Shown here piece by piece: positions 2,016 to 8,896 of a stretch of 15,336 nucleotides of DNA. The position numbers were made by a program, and so were the translations under genes. Below the pieces are notes generated by a model. It saw only the letters and a program-made list of their open reading frames with translations, ran no database searches and was not told the origin of the DNA. This DNA comes from a virus. Lineage: Duplodnaviria; Heunggongvirae; Uroviricota; Caudoviricetes. How positions within the stretch are numbered: the first letter of the stretch is position 1; every line of letters begins with the position of its first letter. The stretch lies in the IMG/VR virus record IMGVR_UViG_3300028585_000002, positions 1 through 15,336 of that record; one strand, 5' to 3'.

Positions 2016-2234
2016 ATGTTCGACAAACTGCGGGGCGCGCTGCGCTCCAAAACCATCTGGTTCAACGCTGTCGCCATCCCGGTGCTGGCCACGATCTTCG
2101 ACCAGGCCCAGGCCAACCTCGGCGCGCTGGCGCCGTACCTGGCTGACGACAAGATGAAGGTGCTCGCCGTGGCCTCGATCGGCGGCAACATCATCCTGCG
2201 CGCGCTGGTGACGGAACGCCTGGAGCACAAATGA
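2016..2234 (+). CDS. Putative holin
   Basis: 72 aa, two hydrophobic segments, RSKTIWFN and N..LR..T..L..K pattern, between endolysin and spanin; AAGGA SD. Confidence 0.75.
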   Translation: MFDKLRGALRSKTIWFNAVAIPVLATIFDQAQANLGALAPYLADDKMKVLAVASIGGNIILRALVTERLEHK

Positions 2235-2698
2235 CCTGGCGCGTCTGCACCCTGCTCGTCGCCGCGGCCCTGACCGTCGGCTTCAGCGTGGGCTACCACG
2301 TCAAGGACCAGGCGACCCAGGCGGCTGTCGTGAAGCAGACCACCGCGGCGGTCAAGCAGGCCGGCGCCAACATCGCCGAATCGGCGGTTCGCAGCCAACA
2401 AGTCGAGGCAGCGATCCAGCAAACCGACTCCAACATCGACCAGCTCAAAGCGGCCGCACAGGCGCGCCTGCAGAAGGGGAAGACCCATGAAACAACCATC
2501 CGTGTCGGCGGCAACGCTGGGCATGACAACGGTGCAGGTCGCATCGCCACCGCCACCACCACCGAGCAACCAGGACCGGCTGGTGACGCTGCTGACGATT
2601 GCGGCAGCGATCGCCGCCTTGATTTTGGCACTGTGCGGCTGCTCAACCGCGCCCGCGACGAAGGCGCCGTGGAGTCCGCCCCAGGCAGCGCTGGTTAA
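2231..2698 (+). CDS. Rz: i-spanin (Rz-like)
   Basis: N-terminal TM anchor, Ala/Gln-rich coiled coil, overlaps a downstream lipoprotein gene; ATGA overlap with holin stop. Confidence 0.75.
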   Translation: MTWRVCTLLVAAALTVGFSVGYHVKDQATQAAVVKQTTAAVKQAGANIAESAVRSQQVEAAIQQTDSNIDQLKAAAQARLQKGKTHETTIRVGGNAGHDNGAGRIATATTTEQPGPAGDAADDCGSDRRLDFGTVRLLNRARDEGAVESAPGSAG

Positions 2699-2882
2699 GT
2701 CCGAGCCGCTGCCGAAGCTGGCCGACGACCCTGACCAGGCCGATGACGCCCAGTCCACGATCGGCATCGAGGAGCTGGTCGCCGACAACTTCAACCTGGT
2801 CAAGGCGTACAAGCGCCTGGCCAAGCGGCACGACGAGCTGGTCGACGCCGTGATGCAGCGGCTGCAGATCCAGGCAAAATGA
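2487..2882 (+). CDS. Rz1: o-spanin lipoprotein (Rz1-like); alternative start GTG 2583
   Basis: Hydrophobic stretch plus lipobox LCGC (Cys codon 2640), Pro-rich mature N-terminus, overlaps Rz in another frame. Confidence 0.75.
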   Translation: MKQPSVSAATLGMTTVQVASPPPPPPSNQDRLVTLLTIAAAIAALILALCGCSTAPATKAPWSPPQAALVKSEPLPKLADDPDQADDAQSTIGIEELVADNFNLVKAYKRLAKRHDELVDAVMQRLQIQAK

Positions 2883-3132
2883 TCCACCTGACGATGACCC
2901 CGACGTTTCCAGCGTTCGCGTGTACGACGAGCCTGGAGGCTACAACGCCAGGCGGCCGTACCTTGCTATTTTCAAGGTGACGCACCTGACCGACACGACT
3001 GCCTATATCCATAGCGCAGTGGGGAAAATCGACCGCGAGACACGGACCAAGGCGCTCAACCTCTTGCGAGAGAAAGGCATCAAGACCGTGATGCTCGAGC
3101 GCCATGGACGCATAAAAACCGTGGAGCTGTGA
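2879..3132 (+). CDS. Small phage hypothetical protein; apparent 1-nt frameshift at CCCC 2898-2901 (intact ORF from GTG 2920)
   Basis: ATG 2879 overlaps the spanin stop and reads MIHLTMT; the long ORF frame reads PDVSSVRVYDEPGG; one extra C would join them. Confidence 0.65.
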
Positions 3133-3152
3133 TCAAGCAGAGTGGACTCAAG

Positions 3153-3440
3153 TCAAAGGCCCCCTCCCGGATTGCAGAGCCTGCAGCTATGTGGTCTTGG
3201 GCGGAAACCGCATCTCTCGGTCACATAAACTCCATTGTCCGGATCGGATTCCCGTTCACAGTGCCGAGGTCTGTCGTCGCGACGTGGCAGCGCTGCGTCT
3301 AAAATGTCGTGATCGGCTTCAGCTTCGATTCCCGCTATGTGATGATTAACCGCATCATCAATCTCCGCTTGGTCGAAGTCCGCTTTTTGTGGCTTTGACG
3401 GCTGTTCCCGTTCTTGGGGCTGGGTCTTGTCTTCGCTCAT
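3153..3440 (-). CDS. Hypothetical protein, moron-like (95 aa, acidic N-half, Cys-containing C-terminus)
   Basis: MSEDKTQPQ... open to 3153 in a lower-GC gap otherwise free of genes; TGc-TAAATT extended -10 on - strand at 3484-3476; SD weak. Confidence 0.4.
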   Translation of the reverse strand: MSEDKTQPQEREQPSKPQKADFDQAEIDDAVNHHIAGIEAEADHDILDAALPRRDDRPRHCERESDPDNGVYVTERCGFRPRPHSCRLCNPGGGL

Positions 3441-3549
3441 TGGATGCTTTCGTGCTTCACGGTGTCGGGAATACCAATTTAGCAATACTGACATACCTTC
3501 AGTCCATACAGACATCGAGGAGAAGATTTTTTCGAAAGCATATAGAAGA

Positions 3550-3571
3550 TAAGTCACCGCTGAGGTATATT
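3550..3571 (+). promoter_or_regulatory. Operator motif TAAGTCACCGCTGA followed by -10-like TATATT upstream of phoH
   Basis: Motif starts 3550, TATATT 3566-3571. Confidence 0.65.
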
Positions 3572-3611
3572 CAAGGCTGGTCCACCCCTCAATCAGCAAG
3601 GAAGCGGAAAT

Positions 3612-4379
3612 ATGCCTAAGCACCAGACCTCCAACCGCAGCGAACAGCGCAAAGCCAAACGCAGCGGTGCCCCACAGGACCAGCACTTCCTCGAGGCCAT
3701 GCCTCCATCCCGCCCGATTAAGGCGCCCCCATTCCAACCCAAGAACGACAAGCAGCGACGCTATGCAGCGTCCATGCGCGCGGGTGGTGTCACGTTCGGT
3801 CTCGGCCCCGCTGGCACCGGCAAAACCTACGTAGCGGGCACCCTTGCAGCTGAAGCGCTCATGAGCAAGACCGTCGAGAAGATCATCCTGACCCGACCTG
3901 CCGTGGAAGCAGGCGGCGAGAACCTGGGCTTCCTGCCTGGCGAGAAGGAAGACAAGTTCGATCCGTACTTCGACCCATTCCGTGATGTGCTCGAGGAGCG
4001 CCTGGGCAAGTCGTTCGTGGAATACCTGATCAAGGAAGGCCGGATCAAGTGCGAGCCGTTCGCCTACATGCGCGGCAAGACCTTCAAGAACGCCTTCGTG
4101 ATCCTGGACGAAGCCCAGAACGCCACCACGGCGCAGTTCAAGCTGTTCCTGACCCGCGTTGGCCAGGACGCGATCGTGGTCATCGACGGCGACGAGAGCC
4201 AGGCTGACATCCGGGAATCGGGCCTGATCGACACGGCCAACCGCCTGATGCATATCCCGAGCGTGAAGGTGGTCATGTTTGCCAAGGCAGACATCGTGCG
4301 CAGCGGCTTCGTGCAGGAGGTGGTGGAGGCATTCGAAGCGCCGGCGCCGGATCGCGTCAATCCGATCCTGCAGCGCTAA
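3612..4379 (+). CDS. phoH: PhoH-like ATPase
   Basis: GPAGTGKT Walker A, RPAVEAG, LGFLPG, YMRGKTF, ILDEAQN, DGDESQ.D motifs. Confidence 0.95.
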   Translation: MPKHQTSNRSEQRKAKRSGAPQDQHFLEAMPPSRPIKAPPFQPKNDKQRRYAASMRAGGVTFGLGPAGTGKTYVAGTLAAEALMSKTVEKIILTRPAVEAGGENLGFLPGEKEDKFDPYFDPFRDVLEERLGKSFVEYLIKEGRIKCEPFAYMRGKTFKNAFVILDEAQNATTAQFKLFLTRVGQDAIVVIDGDESQADIRESGLIDTANRLMHIPSVKVVMFAKADIVRSGFVQEVVEAFEAPAPDRVNPILQR

Positions 4380-4390
4380 ACCGCGGCACC

Positions 4391-4437
4391 GGCCCCAGGT
4401 TCCAGTAAGGACTTGGGGCTGAAATAGACTTGGGGCC
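4391..4437. repeat. Inverted plus direct repeat: GGCCCCAGGT and two copies of GACTTGGGGC (4410-4419, 4427-4436)
   Basis: Read directly; the 5' arm can pair with either downstream copy. Confidence 0.75.
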
Positions 4438-4446
4438 GCCACTCCC

Positions 4447-4510
4447 TTTCTATAAGTTTTAAGTATTATTACAAAACATCATTTAAGTATTTAAGGTTTT
4501 AAAGAATATA
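4447..4510. other. Extremely AT-rich tract with TTTAAGTATT direct repeats; candidate origin or promoter region
   Basis: 10 G/C in 64 nt; TTTAAGTATT at 4458-4467 and 4482-4491; sits at the head of the replication genes. Confidence 0.5.
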
Positions 4511-5235
4511 TGGAAACCGAGGACACCCCCAACCCGATCGAAGCCACGCACGGCGCCTTCTTCGGCAGCGGCCTAGACTTCTTCACCTGTGAGGCCCTGG
4601 CCATCGCCAAGATCGACCGCAAGAGCCTGGCGCTCGAGCCGGCCCTGTACGAGCGCAAGTGGTTCGACTACCGGCGCCTGCACCCGACGATGGCCACCTA
4701 CCTGCTCGCGCACCACTTCAATACTGCATACGGGCGCTTGATGGGCGAGGCGTTCGACCACAAGAAACGCTTCATGGCGGCCTTCAAGGGGAAAGACGTG
4801 ATGGCCGCGCGCGAGGTCAAGTCCTTCTGGAAGCTGCGCCAGAAGATCGACGAGGCCGGCATCCGGTACGACTTCTTCTGCCGCAAGGCGATGGAGTGGT
4901 GCATGATCAACGGCTGGCGCCAGCCGCCCCGCCCCTCTCACGTCAATACCAACGACGAGATGAACATCTGGATCCTCAACCAGTGGGACGAGGAGCGGCG
5001 CGCAAAGATCCAGTGGGCACAAGACAAGCATTTCGCGGCATCGAGCTGGTGCGGTGCGCCCGACCAGGAGGCGTACGAGCAATACCTGCTGGAGCAGATC
5101 ATGTCCAAACCATTGCCGCAGTACGCCCTTCATGCTGCGCTTTATGTATATGACGCGCTGCGCATCGAAACGGCGATCGCGAACCTGCCGGCGACGGCGG
5201 TTGATGCGGCTATTCAATTTGAGCGCGACAGATAA
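4510..5235 (+). CDS. Phage hypothetical protein at the head of the replication block
   Basis: 241-aa ORF with the same codon bias as neighbours, aromatic-rich (KWFDYRRLHP); no recognisable catalytic motif. Confidence 0.8.
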   Translation: METEDTPNPIEATHGAFFGSGLDFFTCEALAIAKIDRKSLALEPALYERKWFDYRRLHPTMATYLLAHHFNTAYGRLMGEAFDHKKRFMAAFKGKDVMAAREVKSFWKLRQKIDEAGIRYDFFCRKAMEWCMINGWRQPPRPSHVNTNDEMNIWILNQWDEERRAKIQWAQDKHFAASSWCGAPDQEAYEQYLLEQIMSKPLPQYALHAALYVYDALRIETAIANLPATAVDAAIQFERDR

Positions 5236-5254
5236 GTCACCACTGAACTATAAT
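5233..5254 (+). promoter_or_regulatory. Operator motif TAAGTCACCACTGA plus perfect TATAAT -10
   Basis: Motif begins at the TAA stop of the upstream gene; TATAAT 5249-5254; GCGACA 18 bp upstream. Confidence 0.75.
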
Positions 5255-5309
5255 GGTCGGGTCAGCGCATCAAGTGATGCGCATCCAACCCCAATACCAG
5301 GAGAAATAC

Positions 5310-5777
5310 ATGACTTTCGCACAAGACACCACTGACGCAGTTCGCCGCGACCAGCTCGAGGCGGCTCGCAGCATGACCGACGACACCGACGCGCCGCGCC
5401 GCGCGACCCTGAGCCTGGCCAGCAGCCGCCCGCGCCCAACCGCCGGCAGCCGTTCGGGCATCGGCGCGCCCGAGAAGAAGAAGAACGTGCTCAAGGGGCA
5501 CGAAGCCTTCCTGAAGGCGCTGGAGATGAACGGTGCGCGCATCGAAGTCGAGAAGTGCGACGGCACGACCTACCGCGGCATCCTCAAGCACACCGACAAG
5601 TATTCGATCACGCTGAACGTGACCGAGCGCGGCGACGTGCAGGAAGACGGCGTGTTTGACCCGGTGCCGGCGCGTGACCGCGTCATCTTCAAGCACGACA
5701 TCAGCGAGTTCTCGGCGCTGACCCACCGCCCGAACGTCGCACCAGCGCCAGCACCGACCATCGAAGGAAACGCATAA
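5310..5777 (+). CDS. hfq: Hfq-like (Sm-fold) RNA-binding protein with N-terminal extension
   Basis: FLKAL-x13-G-x4-G-x5-DKY.I.L is colinear with the Hfq Sm1 motif and IFKHDIS with YKHAIS (Sm2); AGGAG SD before ATG 5310. Confidence 0.82.
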   Translation: MTFAQDTTDAVRRDQLEAARSMTDDTDAPRRATLSLASSRPRPTAGSRSGIGAPEKKKNVLKGHEAFLKALEMNGARIEVEKCDGTTYRGILKHTDKYSITLNVTERGDVQEDGVFDPVPARDRVIFKHDISEFSALTHRPNVAPAPAPTIEGNA

Positions 5778-7243
5778 TGACCGAAGCAGTCGCAACCGCA
5801 GCAGAAGAGGCGGTCGTGGCGATGGTAGGTGCTGCAATGAGCGGTGCCGGCTACGCCCCGCCCCCGTCGCCACACGCGGCACCAGAAGTGCTGTTCGGCG
5901 ACGAGAAGTTCGAATTCGACGCGGAGTTCCAGAGCAAGGTGGCCACGCACTCGATGCGTAACCTGGACTTCCTGCGCAAGATTGCCCACCTGCTCAAGCC
6001 GGACTACTTCGAAAACGCCGGTGAGGCGGCGATGGTCAACATCGCACTACGCTACTACCGCCAGTACGGCTCGGTGCCGACCGTCCTGGCCGCGCGTGAG
6101 TTCTTCGCCGAAGACATCCGCAACAAGGTCGTGCGCAGCGACATCCGGCCGGCAGCGATGGAGGCATTCAAGACTTGCTTCCAGCCGGCGGCGGACCTGT
6201 CTGATGGCCAGTACATCGCCGAGCGGGTCGCGGAGTTCGCGCGCCACCAGGCTATTTCGGCCACGATCTTGCAGTCGGTCGACCTGTTGGAGAAGAAGCA
6301 GTTCGACAAGATCGCCAAGAACGTCAAGGCAGCGTGCGACGTTGGCATCAACACCGACGGCGAAGAGTACGACTACTACGAGCGCATCGCTGAGCGTACC
6401 GCCGAGCGCGCTGACCGCCTGGCGGGCAAGCTCCCACCGACCGGGATCACCACCGGCCACCGGATGATCGACGACCTGCTCTATCACAAGGGCTGGGGTC
6501 GCAAGGAGCTGTCCGTCATCCTCGGTGGTGCGAAGGCCGGTAAGACCACGTTCCTGATCAACGCTGCGAAGGCGGCGTCGCTGGCCGGCTTCAACGTCCT
6601 CTACGTCACCTGCGAAGTGGCCAGCCGCATCATCGCCGAGCGTCTTGATGCCTCGATGACGGACACCGAGATCAAGAATCTCATGGCCAAGATGAAGGAG
6701 GTCGAGGGCAAGCTGCGGGCGACCATGCCGCGCGCGGGCAAGATCAAGTTCGCCGAGTACCCTTCGGGCACGCTCACACCGTCCATGCTGCGCGGGCTGA
6801 TCGAGTCGTATAAGTCGCCACGCCTGAACCCGGATGGCACCGTGCGCGAGCCGGTCCAGTTCGACATGATCGTGGTCGACTATGCCGACATTATGGCGCC
6901 GGACTTCCGCACCCAGGATGCAATCGAGAACAGCAAGGGCATCTACCTGGCGCTGCGCGCGATCGCGATGGAAGAGAACGTCGCGATGCTGTCGGCAACG
7001 CAGACCAACCGGGAAGGCATGAAGTCGACCGTGGCCACCGCAACGCACGTCGCGGACGACATCAACAAGGTCCGGACGGTCGACATCATGATCTCGATCA
7101 ACATCACGGACGAGGAGCGCGCGAACGGCGAGGCGCGTCTGTACTTCGCCGCGTCTCGTAACCAGGCGGGCGGCTTCACGATCTTCATCAAGCAGGAGCT
7201 GGAAAAAATGAAGTTCATCGCAAGCATCATCCGGGTGGAGTAA
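5777..7243 (+). CDS. dnaB: Replicative SF4 (DnaB/gp41-like) DNA helicase
   Basis: GWGRKELSVILGGAKAGKT Walker A, YVTCE, IVVDYAD, ATQTNR motifs. Confidence 0.93.
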   Translation: MTEAVATAAEEAVVAMVGAAMSGAGYAPPPSPHAAPEVLFGDEKFEFDAEFQSKVATHSMRNLDFLRKIAHLLKPDYFENAGEAAMVNIALRYYRQYGSVPTVLAAREFFAEDIRNKVVRSDIRPAAMEAFKTCFQPAADLSDGQYIAERVAEFARHQAISATILQSVDLLEKKQFDKIAKNVKAACDVGINTDGEEYDYYERIAERTAERADRLAGKLPPTGITTGHRMIDDLLYHKGWGRKELSVILGGAKAGKTTFLINAAKAASLAGFNVLYVTCEVASRIIAERLDASMTDTEIKNLMAKMKEVEGKLRATMPRAGKIKFAEYPSGTLTPSMLRGLIESYKSPRLNPDGTVREPVQFDMIVVDYADIMAPDFRTQDAIENSKGIYLALRAIAMEENVAMLSATQTNREGMKSTVATATHVADDINKVRTVDIMISINITDEERANGEARLYFAASRNQAGGFTIFIKQELEKMKFIASIIRVE

Positions 7244-8349
7244 TGAGCAACCACGCCAGCTATTCCCGCGACGAGGAACTGCAGGAGGCGATCGACGCCA
7301 TCGACATTGAGTCGTGGCTCGACGCCGAGGGCGTGCGCTACCGGCATACCCGCGGCGCACGCGGAGCGCAGCTGAACGTCAAGGAGTGCCCTTGCTGCGG
7401 CAGTTCCAGCTACAAGGTGTACCTGAACGCGGAAACCGGGCTGGGGAACTGCTTTCATGGCGACTGCGAGACCAAGTTCAATAAGTGGAAGTTCATCAGC
7501 GCCCAACTGGGCCTGGCTGCGCGGGACACCATCGAGCACATCAAGTCCTACGCGCGCGAACAGGGCTGGCGGCCGCCGCGCAAGCGCGCGATCGCCGTGA
7601 ACAACCGCGGCGAACTGGTGCTGCCCGAGTCGATCCCTATGCCGCACGGTGGTCGGAACCTGAAATACCTGGACAACCGGAACATCAGCGGCGACATCGC
7701 GGCGTATTTTGAGCTGCGCTACTCGCACCGGGGCCACTTCGATTACCTGAGCGAAGAAGGCCACCCGATGCGCCAGGACTACGCCAGCCGGATCATCATC
7801 CCGATCTACGATCTGGAGGGCGAACTGGTGTCGTTCCAGGGGCGAGACATCACCGGCAGCGCGGACAAGAAGTACCTGTTCCCGCCTGGCTTCTCGTCGA
7901 CCGGCAGCCACCTGTACAACGGCTACAACGCCATCGGCGTCGAGCATGTCGTCATCGGGGAAGGCGTGTTCGACGTGGCCGGCATCAAGGTCGCGTTCGA
8001 CCAGGAGGTGACGCTGCGCGACACGGTGCCGATCGGCTCGTTCGGCAAGCACCTGTCGCACGGTGATGCGGACAGCCAGCTGACCAAGCTGACGCTGCTC
8101 AAGGAGAAGGGCCTGAAGATCGTCACGTTCATGTGGGACGGCGAGCGCCAGGCGATCCGTGACGCGGTCAAGGCAGCGCAAATGGTGGCCAGCATCGGCA
8201 TCAGCGCGCGCGTAGCGCTGCTCCCAAAGGGCAAAGACCCTAATGAGGCGGCGCCCGAAGAAGTCAGGAACGCATTCTGGAAAGCGACCCCGATCAACAA
8301 CGCCAGCGCCACCAAGTTGTTGCTGATCGCCGAGCGGGATTACGGTTAG
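7243..8349 (+). CDS. DNA primase (Zn finger plus Toprim)
   Basis: CPCCG...GNCFHGDC zinc finger, FQGRDI, VIGEGVFD and FMWDGE Toprim motifs; coupled to helicase (TAATG). Confidence 0.9.
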   Translation: MSNHASYSRDEELQEAIDAIDIESWLDAEGVRYRHTRGARGAQLNVKECPCCGSSSYKVYLNAETGLGNCFHGDCETKFNKWKFISAQLGLAARDTIEHIKSYAREQGWRPPRKRAIAVNNRGELVLPESIPMPHGGRNLKYLDNRNISGDIAAYFELRYSHRGHFDYLSEEGHPMRQDYASRIIIPIYDLEGELVSFQGRDITGSADKKYLFPPGFSSTGSHLYNGYNAIGVEHVVIGEGVFDVAGIKVAFDQEVTLRDTVPIGSFGKHLSHGDADSQLTKLTLLKEKGLKIVTFMWDGERQAIRDAVKAAQMVASIGISARVALLPKGKDPNEAAPEEVRNAFWKATPINNASATKLLLIAERDYG

Positions 8350-8363
8350 GACGGCAACGCGGA

Positions 8364-8407
8364 TAAGTCACCGGTGAGCACTCTATCCGGTGTCTCATCG
8401 GTATGAT
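8364..8407 (+). promoter_or_regulatory. Operator motif TAAGTCACCGGTGA with TATGAT -10 starting 38 bp after motif start
   Basis: Motif 8364-8377, TATGAT 8402-8407, upstream of the WGR-ligase operon. Confidence 0.65.
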
Positions 8408-8443
8408 TCATCTATCGACAGCGCACAGTAGCGCGAGGGAAAA

Positions 8444-8896
8444 ATGACTTTTAGCATCGAAACAGAGTACTTGGAGCACAAGGGTGGGACTAAGTTCTAC
8501 GAGACCGTCCTGATCAAGGAAGACGACGGGCCGGGCCTGTTGATCAAGCGTTGGGGCGCCATCGCCCTCAAGAACGGCGGTGGCAAGATCAAGTACGACC
8601 GCGGCATGCACAGCATCTGCACGACCGAGCGCGACAAGATCCTGCGCGAGAAGCGCAGCGCCAAGGGCGGCTACGAGAACGCCGTCAAGAGCGGCGCACT
8701 GCACACCTGGCACGGCAACAGCATCACGGCCGCGCAGCTGGCGGGCATGAGCAAGCACCACTACAACGCCGACGTTGCAGCTTACCTGATGGACTACTTC
8801 GGGATGAACGGCACCGCGGAGGTGGTCAACGAGGCGCCGCCGGCGCGCGAACCCGAGAAGCCCATCGAGCGCGGCGAAACGTGGGGGAGCTGGTGA
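8444..8896 (+). CDS. WGR-domain-like protein
   Basis: GTKFYE...IKRWG...G..K...KILREK...KGGY follows the WGR-domain pattern. Confidence 0.7.
   Translation: MTFSIETEYLEHKGGTKFYETVLIKEDDGPGLLIKRWGAIALKNGGGKIKYDRGMHSICTTERDKILREKRSAKGGYENAVKSGALHTWHGNSITAAQLAGMSKHHYNADVAAYLMDYFGMNGTAEVVNEAPPAREPEKPIERGETWGSW

Follow-up and report, generated by a model that had tools for sequence, protein, structure and literature searches.

This study deals with a gene in the first 15.3 kb of the IMG/VR virus record IMGVR_UViG_3300028585_000002, a 111,592-bp sequence with direct terminal repeats. This 15,336-nucleotide stretch is referred to here as the window. The gene stands immediately ahead of the one coding for a DnaB-type replicative helicase, and its product is a true Sm-fold protein of the Hfq branch, although a strongly diverged one. 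The element itself is a phage-plasmid of the SSU5 supergroup, with a size of about 112 kb, and the Hfq-like gene is the first gene of its helicase-primase transcription unit. We consider it rather probable that the product is a diverged Hfq-type ring protein which binds with one face, is produced alongside the helicase and serves the replication module.

A preliminary description of the window had proposed that this protein is Hfq-like. When the window protein is scored alone against the Pfam Hfq family (PF17209), it reaches 18.2 bits (E 0.0019), below the gathering cut-off of 27; the next sub-threshold matches are SM-ATX and then LSM, all of them Sm-type. Consistent with this score, a PF17209 search of the phage genome returned no match at E ≤ 0.001. 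The score of the single protein is weak, yet homology to Hfq is above chance because the evidence obtained at the level of the family is strong. A word-indexed protein search yielded 54 relatives, several of them carrying a precomputed PF17209 assignment or an Hfq name in IMG, and one of them named Hfq by NCBI. Scanned singly, 51 of the 54 match PF17209 (E ≤ 0.01; best value 1.6e-10). A family profile was built from the alignment of these 54 sequences and used to search the PDB: 32 distinct sequences were matched, all of them Hfq, the best being Staphylococcus aureus Hfq (1kq1; 7.1e-5). Alignment of the same profile with the canonical chromosomal Hfq of Massilia by hhalign gave a probability of 90.5% (E 1.3e-6), and BLASTP of the window protein with that Massilia protein, as a single pair, gave an E value of 2e-5. 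Identity to the canonical Hfq of the likely host genus is about 26%.

The predicted structure agrees with these results. In the AlphaFold2 (AF2) model, obtained with the family alignment, the Sm core has block means of the predicted local distance difference test (pLDDT) of 91–96 over residues 71–130 and shows the alpha-beta5 topology, with a helix at residues 63–74 and strands at 77–82, 86–95, 99–109, 116–127 and 131–136, beta3 and beta4 being long. Outside the core, the model contains a helix at residues 4–22 and a low-confidence linker at residues 23–60. When the model was compared with the PDB using Foldseek, Hfq chains led the list (Listeria, S. aureus, Caulobacter, Thermotoga and E. coli); template modelling (TM) scores normalised by target were 0.73–0.87, and eukaryotic Sm-fold chains (Lsm, Edc3) were also among the top rows. 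The nearest clusters in the ESM Atlas carry Hfq_1 and Hfq. Profile and structure searches thus agree on an Sm fold, and the Hfq-like identity first proposed is borne out by the family-level profile, the PDB search, hhalign and AF2. The alignment register that had been proposed for the core was recovered as well: hhalign pairs EAFLKAL.. with DPFLNAL.. and continues without gaps through beta3, then places a 16-residue insertion and pairs VIFKHDIS with MVYKHAIS. The protein contains the Sm2 motif of the Hfq type (F127-K128-H129-D130-I131-S132, aligned to YKHAIS), which replaces the R-G-x type of archaeal and eukaryotic Sm proteins.

We then consider the distribution of the family and its genomic setting. 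When 1.84 billion representatives were searched exhaustively with the profile, 466 clusters (50% identity) were recovered at E ≤ 1e-3, and 177 remained at E ≤ 1e-10. The gene order PhoH, phrog_2500, Hfq-like protein, DnaB, primase, WGR protein is present, as far as the fetched DNA reaches, in 66 of 66 IMG/VR loci, these being the loci found with family patterns; across them, identity drops to 49% for DnaB and to 32% for the Hfq-like protein. The distance between the stop codon of the Hfq-like gene and the closest start codon in frame with dnaB lies between −10 and +5 nt in 67 of 69 loci. Seven distant representatives were also inspected: DnaB comes directly next in five, one contig breaks in the next open reading frame (ORF) and one ends earlier. 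The preliminary description had pointed to the coupling with the helicase gene, and the synteny holds in every locus examined.

The Hfq-like/dnaB junction outlasts replacement of the flanking genes, insertions that separate dnaB from the primase gene, and divergence to about 32% identity. This persistence has to be confronted with the view that the protein chaperones or protects phage RNA in general, its adjacency to dnaB being a frozen accident of operon history. Sm/Hfq-like proteins do exist in many unrelated phages elsewhere, as exemplified by the mycobacteriophage 'Hfq-like domain' proteins and the Gordonia 'RNA binding protein', but a junction that survives all these changes argues against an accident, and we regard this explanation as very improbable.

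Beyond the IMG/VR loci, tblastn located the Hfq-like gene on 151 Acinetobacter baumannii plasmids, which among those listed have sizes of about 105–114 kb. There the gene lies directly before genes for a DnaB-like helicase and a toprim primase, and its product bears the RefSeq name 'RNA chaperone Hfq'. A tblastn search of the window protein against 50,697 phage records gave nothing at E ≤ 1e-3; the cultured-phage relative, gp117 of Pseudomonas phage nickie, was detected by the family profile alone. The isolate Massilia sp. TN1-12 carries an 80%-identical homologue of the Hfq-like protein on a 112,962-bp contig, and its chromosome contains one canonical hfq. This cultured isolate points to Oxalobacteraceae, in which the host of the element likely belongs. 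Two further observations concern the same region in other replicons. In one distant lineage, the gene of a Rep3-type plasmid initiator is found in place of PhoH, ahead of the phrog_2500/Hfq-like/DnaB block (positions 2199–5911 of that locus). Stenotrophomonas phage BUCTxx99 (2281–2490) and Xanthomonas phage JGB6 (2561–2767) have ORFs of 68–69 amino acids just before dnaB that look Sm1-like by eye; no significant match of these ORFs was obtained to the family profile, to Pfam, to the PDB or by hhalign.

Conservation within the family was read from 190 aligned representatives in the hhalign register to Massilia Hfq, and named Hfq positions follow the E. coli numbering. In Hfq, uridines and the RNA 3′ end are bound by the proximal pocket, to which adjacent subunits of the ring contribute. 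The residues that do not vary in the family are those which, from the established Hfq structures, we take to line this pocket. G63-H64 is conserved in 99% of the sequences, H64 occupying the position of Hfq Q8, and E65, at the position of D9, in 88%; G90 (G34 in Hfq) and D96 (D40) are both conserved in 100%. K97, at Q41, is found in 83%, and a tyrosine or phenylalanine at residue 98 (F42) in 94%, whereas the Sm2 side of the pocket is formed by F127, at Y55 (91%), K128, equal to K56 (99%), and H129, equal to H57 (94%). H64, E65, K97, Y98, K128 and H129 are thus among the most conserved positions of the family, with Q8 to H and Q41 to K being substitutions. The D96-K97-Y98 triplet equals the DKY of the S. 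aureus Hfq chain at that position in the aligned PDB match. The proximal face was already proposed to be retained (F42 to Y98, Y55 to F127, with K56 and H57 kept as K128 and H129), and the alignment agrees residue by residue. Binding of uridine by the pocket so substituted is a prediction from sequence.

The two other RNA-binding surfaces of Hfq show the opposite behaviour, also as initially proposed. The rim arginines R16, R17 and R19 are replaced by E72, M73 and G75; in the family, the first of these positions is a glutamate in 74% of the sequences, the second is variable and the third is a glycine in 64%. The distal Y25 is replaced by E81 (glutamate in 57% of the family), and the I30 position is occupied by E, D or T. 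The window protein hence lacks the rim arginine patch of the enterobacterial-type matchmaker and also the aromatic residue at position 25 that serves the distal A-rich (ARN) site. Panja et al. (2013; PMC3753642) describe the rim patch (R16, R17, R19) as needed for annealing by Hfq.

A protein that keeps the proximal face and has lost the rim and the distal one is what would be expected of a non-productive competitor of host Hfq. It could accordingly be an anti-host factor, which would either titrate the U-tails of host Hfq-dependent small RNAs (sRNAs) without pairing them or form mixed, inactive rings with host Hfq; the likely host genus does have one canonical hfq to be targeted. Nevertheless, an activity of this kind leaves the invariant slot before dnaB unexplained, and the long beta3-beta4 hairpin, together with the identity of only about one residue in four to host Hfq, makes mixed rings less likely. 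Moreover, the element is temperate and plasmid-like, and disabling host Hfq would presumably be costly in the carried state. We therefore consider an anti-host role improbable; the tight and universal linkage to dnaB would favour a replication-linked role over a sponge of host sRNAs.

With respect to the segments that surround the conserved pocket, hhalign shows that the 16-residue acidic insertion noticed at the outset is real. It contains five acidic side chains and one basic side chain, and in the family its length ranges from zero to about 20 residues. The N-terminal extension had been described as Arg-rich and of low complexity. The first term holds (8 Arg in the 62 N-terminal residues), but the second does not suffice, since the extension includes the predicted helix at residues 4–22, in which R12 and Q15 are kept in about 80% of the representatives. 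The extension is missing in the short members of the family (81–89 amino acids), and that of the Acinetobacter member is unrelated. At the C-terminal end, a conserved ..EEG.. was evaluated as a possible acidic partner-binding tip similar to that of single-stranded DNA-binding proteins (SSBs). This candidate was rejected: the codons spell the dnaB Shine-Dalgarno sequence, GAAGGA or GAAGAAGG. We read the ..EEG.. end of the family as a constraint at the nucleotide level, that is, dual coding of the dnaB Shine-Dalgarno sequence, and not as a protein motif.

The TAA of the Hfq-like gene was described as overlapping the ATG of the helicase gene; the overlap consists of one shared base, at position 5777. 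A Shine-Dalgarno-like tetramer is found at 32 of 50 distinct Hfq-like/dnaB junctions. Upstream of the Hfq-like gene, an operator-controlled TATAAT promoter had been suggested. A promoter-like site is indeed present, with a repeated 9-mer, TAAGTCACC, in its spacer; this 9-mer has five exact copies in the window and nine at one mismatch or fewer, against 1.2 expected. Upstream of their Hfq-like genes, six related loci have kept the block TAAGTCA-N5-TGA-N2-TATAAT. Operator control itself is plausible from this arrangement. Downstream of the promoter block, the six relatives contain a short GC-rich inverted repeat, the sequence of which differs in each of them (alignment read by eye). The inverted repeat may form a hairpin in the 5′ leader, maintained by compensatory changes, or it may be a DNA site of variable sequence.

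These features of the transcript have to be considered together with the possibility that the protein is exclusively a post-transcriptional regulator. In such a case the ring would bind an RNA, either the transcript of dnaB and the primase gene or one that controls replication, and alter its stability, termination or translation, with no contact with the replisome. The residues conserved in the family are those used by Hfq for RNA 3′ ends, the dnaB Shine-Dalgarno sequence lies inside the last codons of the Hfq-like gene, and a conserved leader hairpin possibly follows the promoter. A precedent can also be found in phage T4, in which GoF(D25Y), an LSm-like protein, stabilises the messenger RNA (mRNA) of helicase gene 41, although wild-type GoF has no strong effect (Kim et al., 2025; PMC12152347). 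On the other hand, no target RNA was identified, the Rfam scan of the window returned no known RNA family, and the rim residues for annealing are missing. In addition, a regulator does not need the stop-start overlap with dnaB that is found family-wide. Considering both sides, we view regulation through RNA alone as unlikely.

The preliminary description named three possible functions and preferred none of them: a sponge or dominant-negative directed at host sRNAs or host Hfq, a chaperone of phage RNAs, and an Sm ring repurposed for replication. Our preferred reading is that of an Hfq-type ring working for the replication module. The protein would form an Hfq-like ring, as is expected because the conserved pocket residues come from adjacent subunits. 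Its ligand would be single-stranded nucleic acid rich in U, RNA 3′ ends being the likeliest, bound on one face only; with the rim arginines and the distal site missing, matchmaking of two RNAs as performed by enterobacterial Hfq would not be possible. The protein would be produced together with the helicase and would serve the replication module: the stop-start juxtaposition with dnaB persists despite replacement of flanking genes, which argues for a function within that module. The ring might act there in more than one way. It could be a protein-level accessory of DnaB or the primase at the origin or the fork, for example by keeping hold of displaced strands or of origin or primer RNA, or by aiding helicase loading; we put this forward tentatively, as a possibility of some weight. 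Control at the level of RNA, exerted on the dnaB-primase message or on an RNA that governs replication, seems to us less likely. A stricter version of the protein-level role, in which the Hfq/Sm ring is a dedicated component of the phage-plasmid replisome, appears to us somewhat doubtful; as a cofactor or loader, it would be synthesised in parallel with the hexameric DnaB and would handle RNA or DNA single strands at the origin or the fork.

Several observations weigh against a role of the Hfq-like protein in replication. Ring formation, nucleic acid binding and contact with DnaB are all predicted properties, and adjacency to dnaB may reflect a shared timing of expression rather than a shared mechanism. 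The helicase does not need the Hfq-like gene: Salmonella phage SSU5, Klebsiella pJN2-26 and the Rhizobium phages RHph_X66 and RHEph10 have phrog_2500, DnaB and primase without it. As the same helicase-primase module exists without the Hfq-like gene, the latter is to be considered an accessory gene and not a core replication factor. Nor does DnaB vary strictly in parallel with the Hfq-like gene, its N-terminal extension being short in Acinetobacter; one DnaB that follows an Hfq-like gene has 443 amino acids, and RHEph10, devoid of the gene, has an acidic extension. With respect to the protein itself, the window member falls below the Pfam Hfq cut-off, and the phage nickie copy has FKS for FKH, so that the pocket histidine is lost and the pocket is not kept across the wider lineage.

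Table 1. Positions in the window of the Hfq-like gene, its protein segments and the surrounding features.
Feature	Positions	Strand	Remarks
PhoH-like ATPase	3612–4379		Upstream of the phrog_2500 gene
phrog_2500 protein	4510–5235	+	241 aa, conserved; upstream of the Hfq-like gene
Promoter-like site GCGACA-18-TATAAT	5225–5254	+	Sole such site found in 4300–8500
Repeated 9-mer TAAGTCACC	5233–5241	+	Inside the promoter spacer
Perfect 8-bp inverted repeat GCGCATCA-AG-TGATGCGC	5266–5283	+	Near the predicted 5′ end of the transcript; z −2.3
Shine-Dalgarno sequence of the Hfq-like gene, AGGAGA	5299–5304	+	5 nt ahead of the ATG
Hfq-like gene	5310–5777	+	155 codons plus TAA; ATG at 5310, TAA at 5775–5777
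N-terminal predicted helix, residues 4–22	5319–5375	+	AF2 block pLDDT means 64 and 85; R12 and Q15 conserved
Basic Arg/Lys/Pro-rich linker, residues 23–62	5376–5495	+	Predicted disordered; AF2 pLDDT 50–57
Sm/Hfq core, residues 63–136	5496–5717	+	alpha1 63–74, beta1–beta5 77–136; G63-H64 and F127-K128-H129 motifs
16-residue acidic insertion, residues 106–121	5625–5672	+	Lengthens the beta3-beta4 hairpin in the AF2 model; variable in the family
dnaB Shine-Dalgarno sequence GAAGGA	5763–5768	+	Inside the final codons of the Hfq-like gene (..IEGNA)
DnaB-type replicative helicase	5777–7243	+	488 aa; ATG shares one base with the TAA of the Hfq-like gene
DnaG-type primase	7243–8349	+	ATG overlaps the dnaB stop codon
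WGR-type protein	8444–8896	+	150 aa; weak WGR-domain match, E 0.0086; after the primase

The remaining proteins of the replication module (Table 1) were analyzed as well. The phrog_2500 protein is always encoded upstream of the Hfq-like gene or, where the latter is absent, of dnaB. Its AF2 model is all-alpha (pLDDT 93, predicted TM score 0.89); no PDB entry was matched by Foldseek at E ≤ 0.001, and neither a profile search of the PDB nor the Atlas was informative. The best VIA match, to the helicase-binding N-terminal domain of the Pol-alpha B subunit, had a Z value of 5.8, which is within the range of chance. We consider the phrog_2500 protein a candidate initiator or loader. In the clade of the window, DnaB is extended at its N-terminus by some 44 residues (5777–5908), with a conserved AEExV..MVG motif before a FEFD..FQ motif; nickie has this extension too, but it is missing from the helicases of SSU5, Klebsiella and RHph_X66. 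The extension was examined as a docking site for the Hfq-like protein and was rejected, as extension and Hfq-like gene do not co-occur strictly. The WGR protein is kept in most related loci. In RHph_X66 and Klebsiella pJN2-26, the two cultured relatives checked, the ORF located in the WGR slot precedes an ATP-dependent DNA ligase.

The idea of the Hfq-like protein being a substitute for an SSB was also dropped. The Pfam SSB family has no match in the genome, but that says little, phage SSBs being often too diverged for such an absence to mean much.

A phage-borne Hfq-like protein is not new as such: RefSeq and IMG already use the name Hfq for members of the family, and annotations of Sm/Hfq-like proteins exist for other phages. 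The novelty is hence less than the preliminary description implied. What appears to be undescribed in the literature searched is the family as a unit, its pattern of conservation on one face and the fact that it is universally coupled to the replicative helicase; literature searches yielded no functional study of the family. Tractable systems to approach its function exist in phage nickie, in the Acinetobacter phage-plasmids and in the Massilia isolate. The Acinetobacter protein WP_000614153.1 belongs to the same family (family profile E 2e-16, 36% identity by tblastn) and, with 27.7 bits, reaches the Pfam Hfq cut-off. It differs from the window protein in its length (179 amino acids), in having its own unrelated N-terminal extension of about 95 residues, and in its gammaproteobacterial host. 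Protein gp117 of nickie (YP_009620715.1, annotated as 'hypothetical protein') was recognised by the family profile (E 3e-9), by Foldseek against BFVD (E 1e-5) and by Pfam Hfq (E 4e-5), and its gene overlaps the start of dnaB. This protein has 89 amino acids, is devoid of the N-terminal extension and shows the FKS variant of the pocket; the phage was isolated on Pseudomonas syringae.

Hfq is among the best-studied bacterial RNA chaperones, and here is a large family that has kept one of its RNA-binding faces, has discarded two and is fixed to a helicase gene. With canonical Hfq (PF17209; S. aureus 1kq1/1kq2, E. coli 1hk9, Massilia) the family shares the Sm fold, with the N-terminal helix and five strands, the (F/Y)-K-H-x-I-S Sm2 motif and a pocket in which Q8, D9, D40, Q41, F42, Y55, K56 and H57 are kept or conservatively replaced. 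The differences are equally clear. Identity is just about 22–27%, the window protein does not reach the Pfam cut-off, the rim reads E/x/G and the distal position is a Glu. Instead of the usual C-terminal tail of canonical Hfq, there is an N-terminal extension together with the beta3-beta4 insertion of up to about 20 residues, and the location of the gene on a phage-plasmid, fixed ahead of dnaB, sets it further apart. If the protein acts on RNA instead of working with the helicase, a natural single-face Hfq could show what the proximal face does alone.

Two other systems link Sm-type proteins of mobile elements to helicases. The T4 proteins GoF, MotB.1 and Frd.2 form a family with a predicted LSm-like fold, to which the D25Y mutant acting on gene 41 mRNA belongs (Kim et al., 2025; PMC12152347). 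The Sm fold in a phage protein is common to both cases, but the T4 proteins lack the Hfq motifs and are recognised by predicted structure only, their early genes do not adjoin gene 41, and the effect is seen only in the gain-of-function mutant. In plasmids of Thermococcus and Methanocaldococcus, zinc-finger/Hfq-like genes adjoin helicase genes in one transcription unit, and a role in replication has been proposed for them (Krupovic et al., 2013; PMC3543421). Compared by description, location on a mobile element and adjacency to a helicase gene are shared with the family reported here, whereas the archaeal gene lies downstream of the helicase gene and is fused to a C2H2 zinc finger. If the ring of the SSU5-type phage-plasmids does work with the helicase, the Sm fold would be extended to DNA replication independently of the helicase-linked Hfq-like genes of the archaeal plasmids, and this would explain a recurrent linkage between Sm proteins and helicases, present in those plasmids and hinted at in T4.

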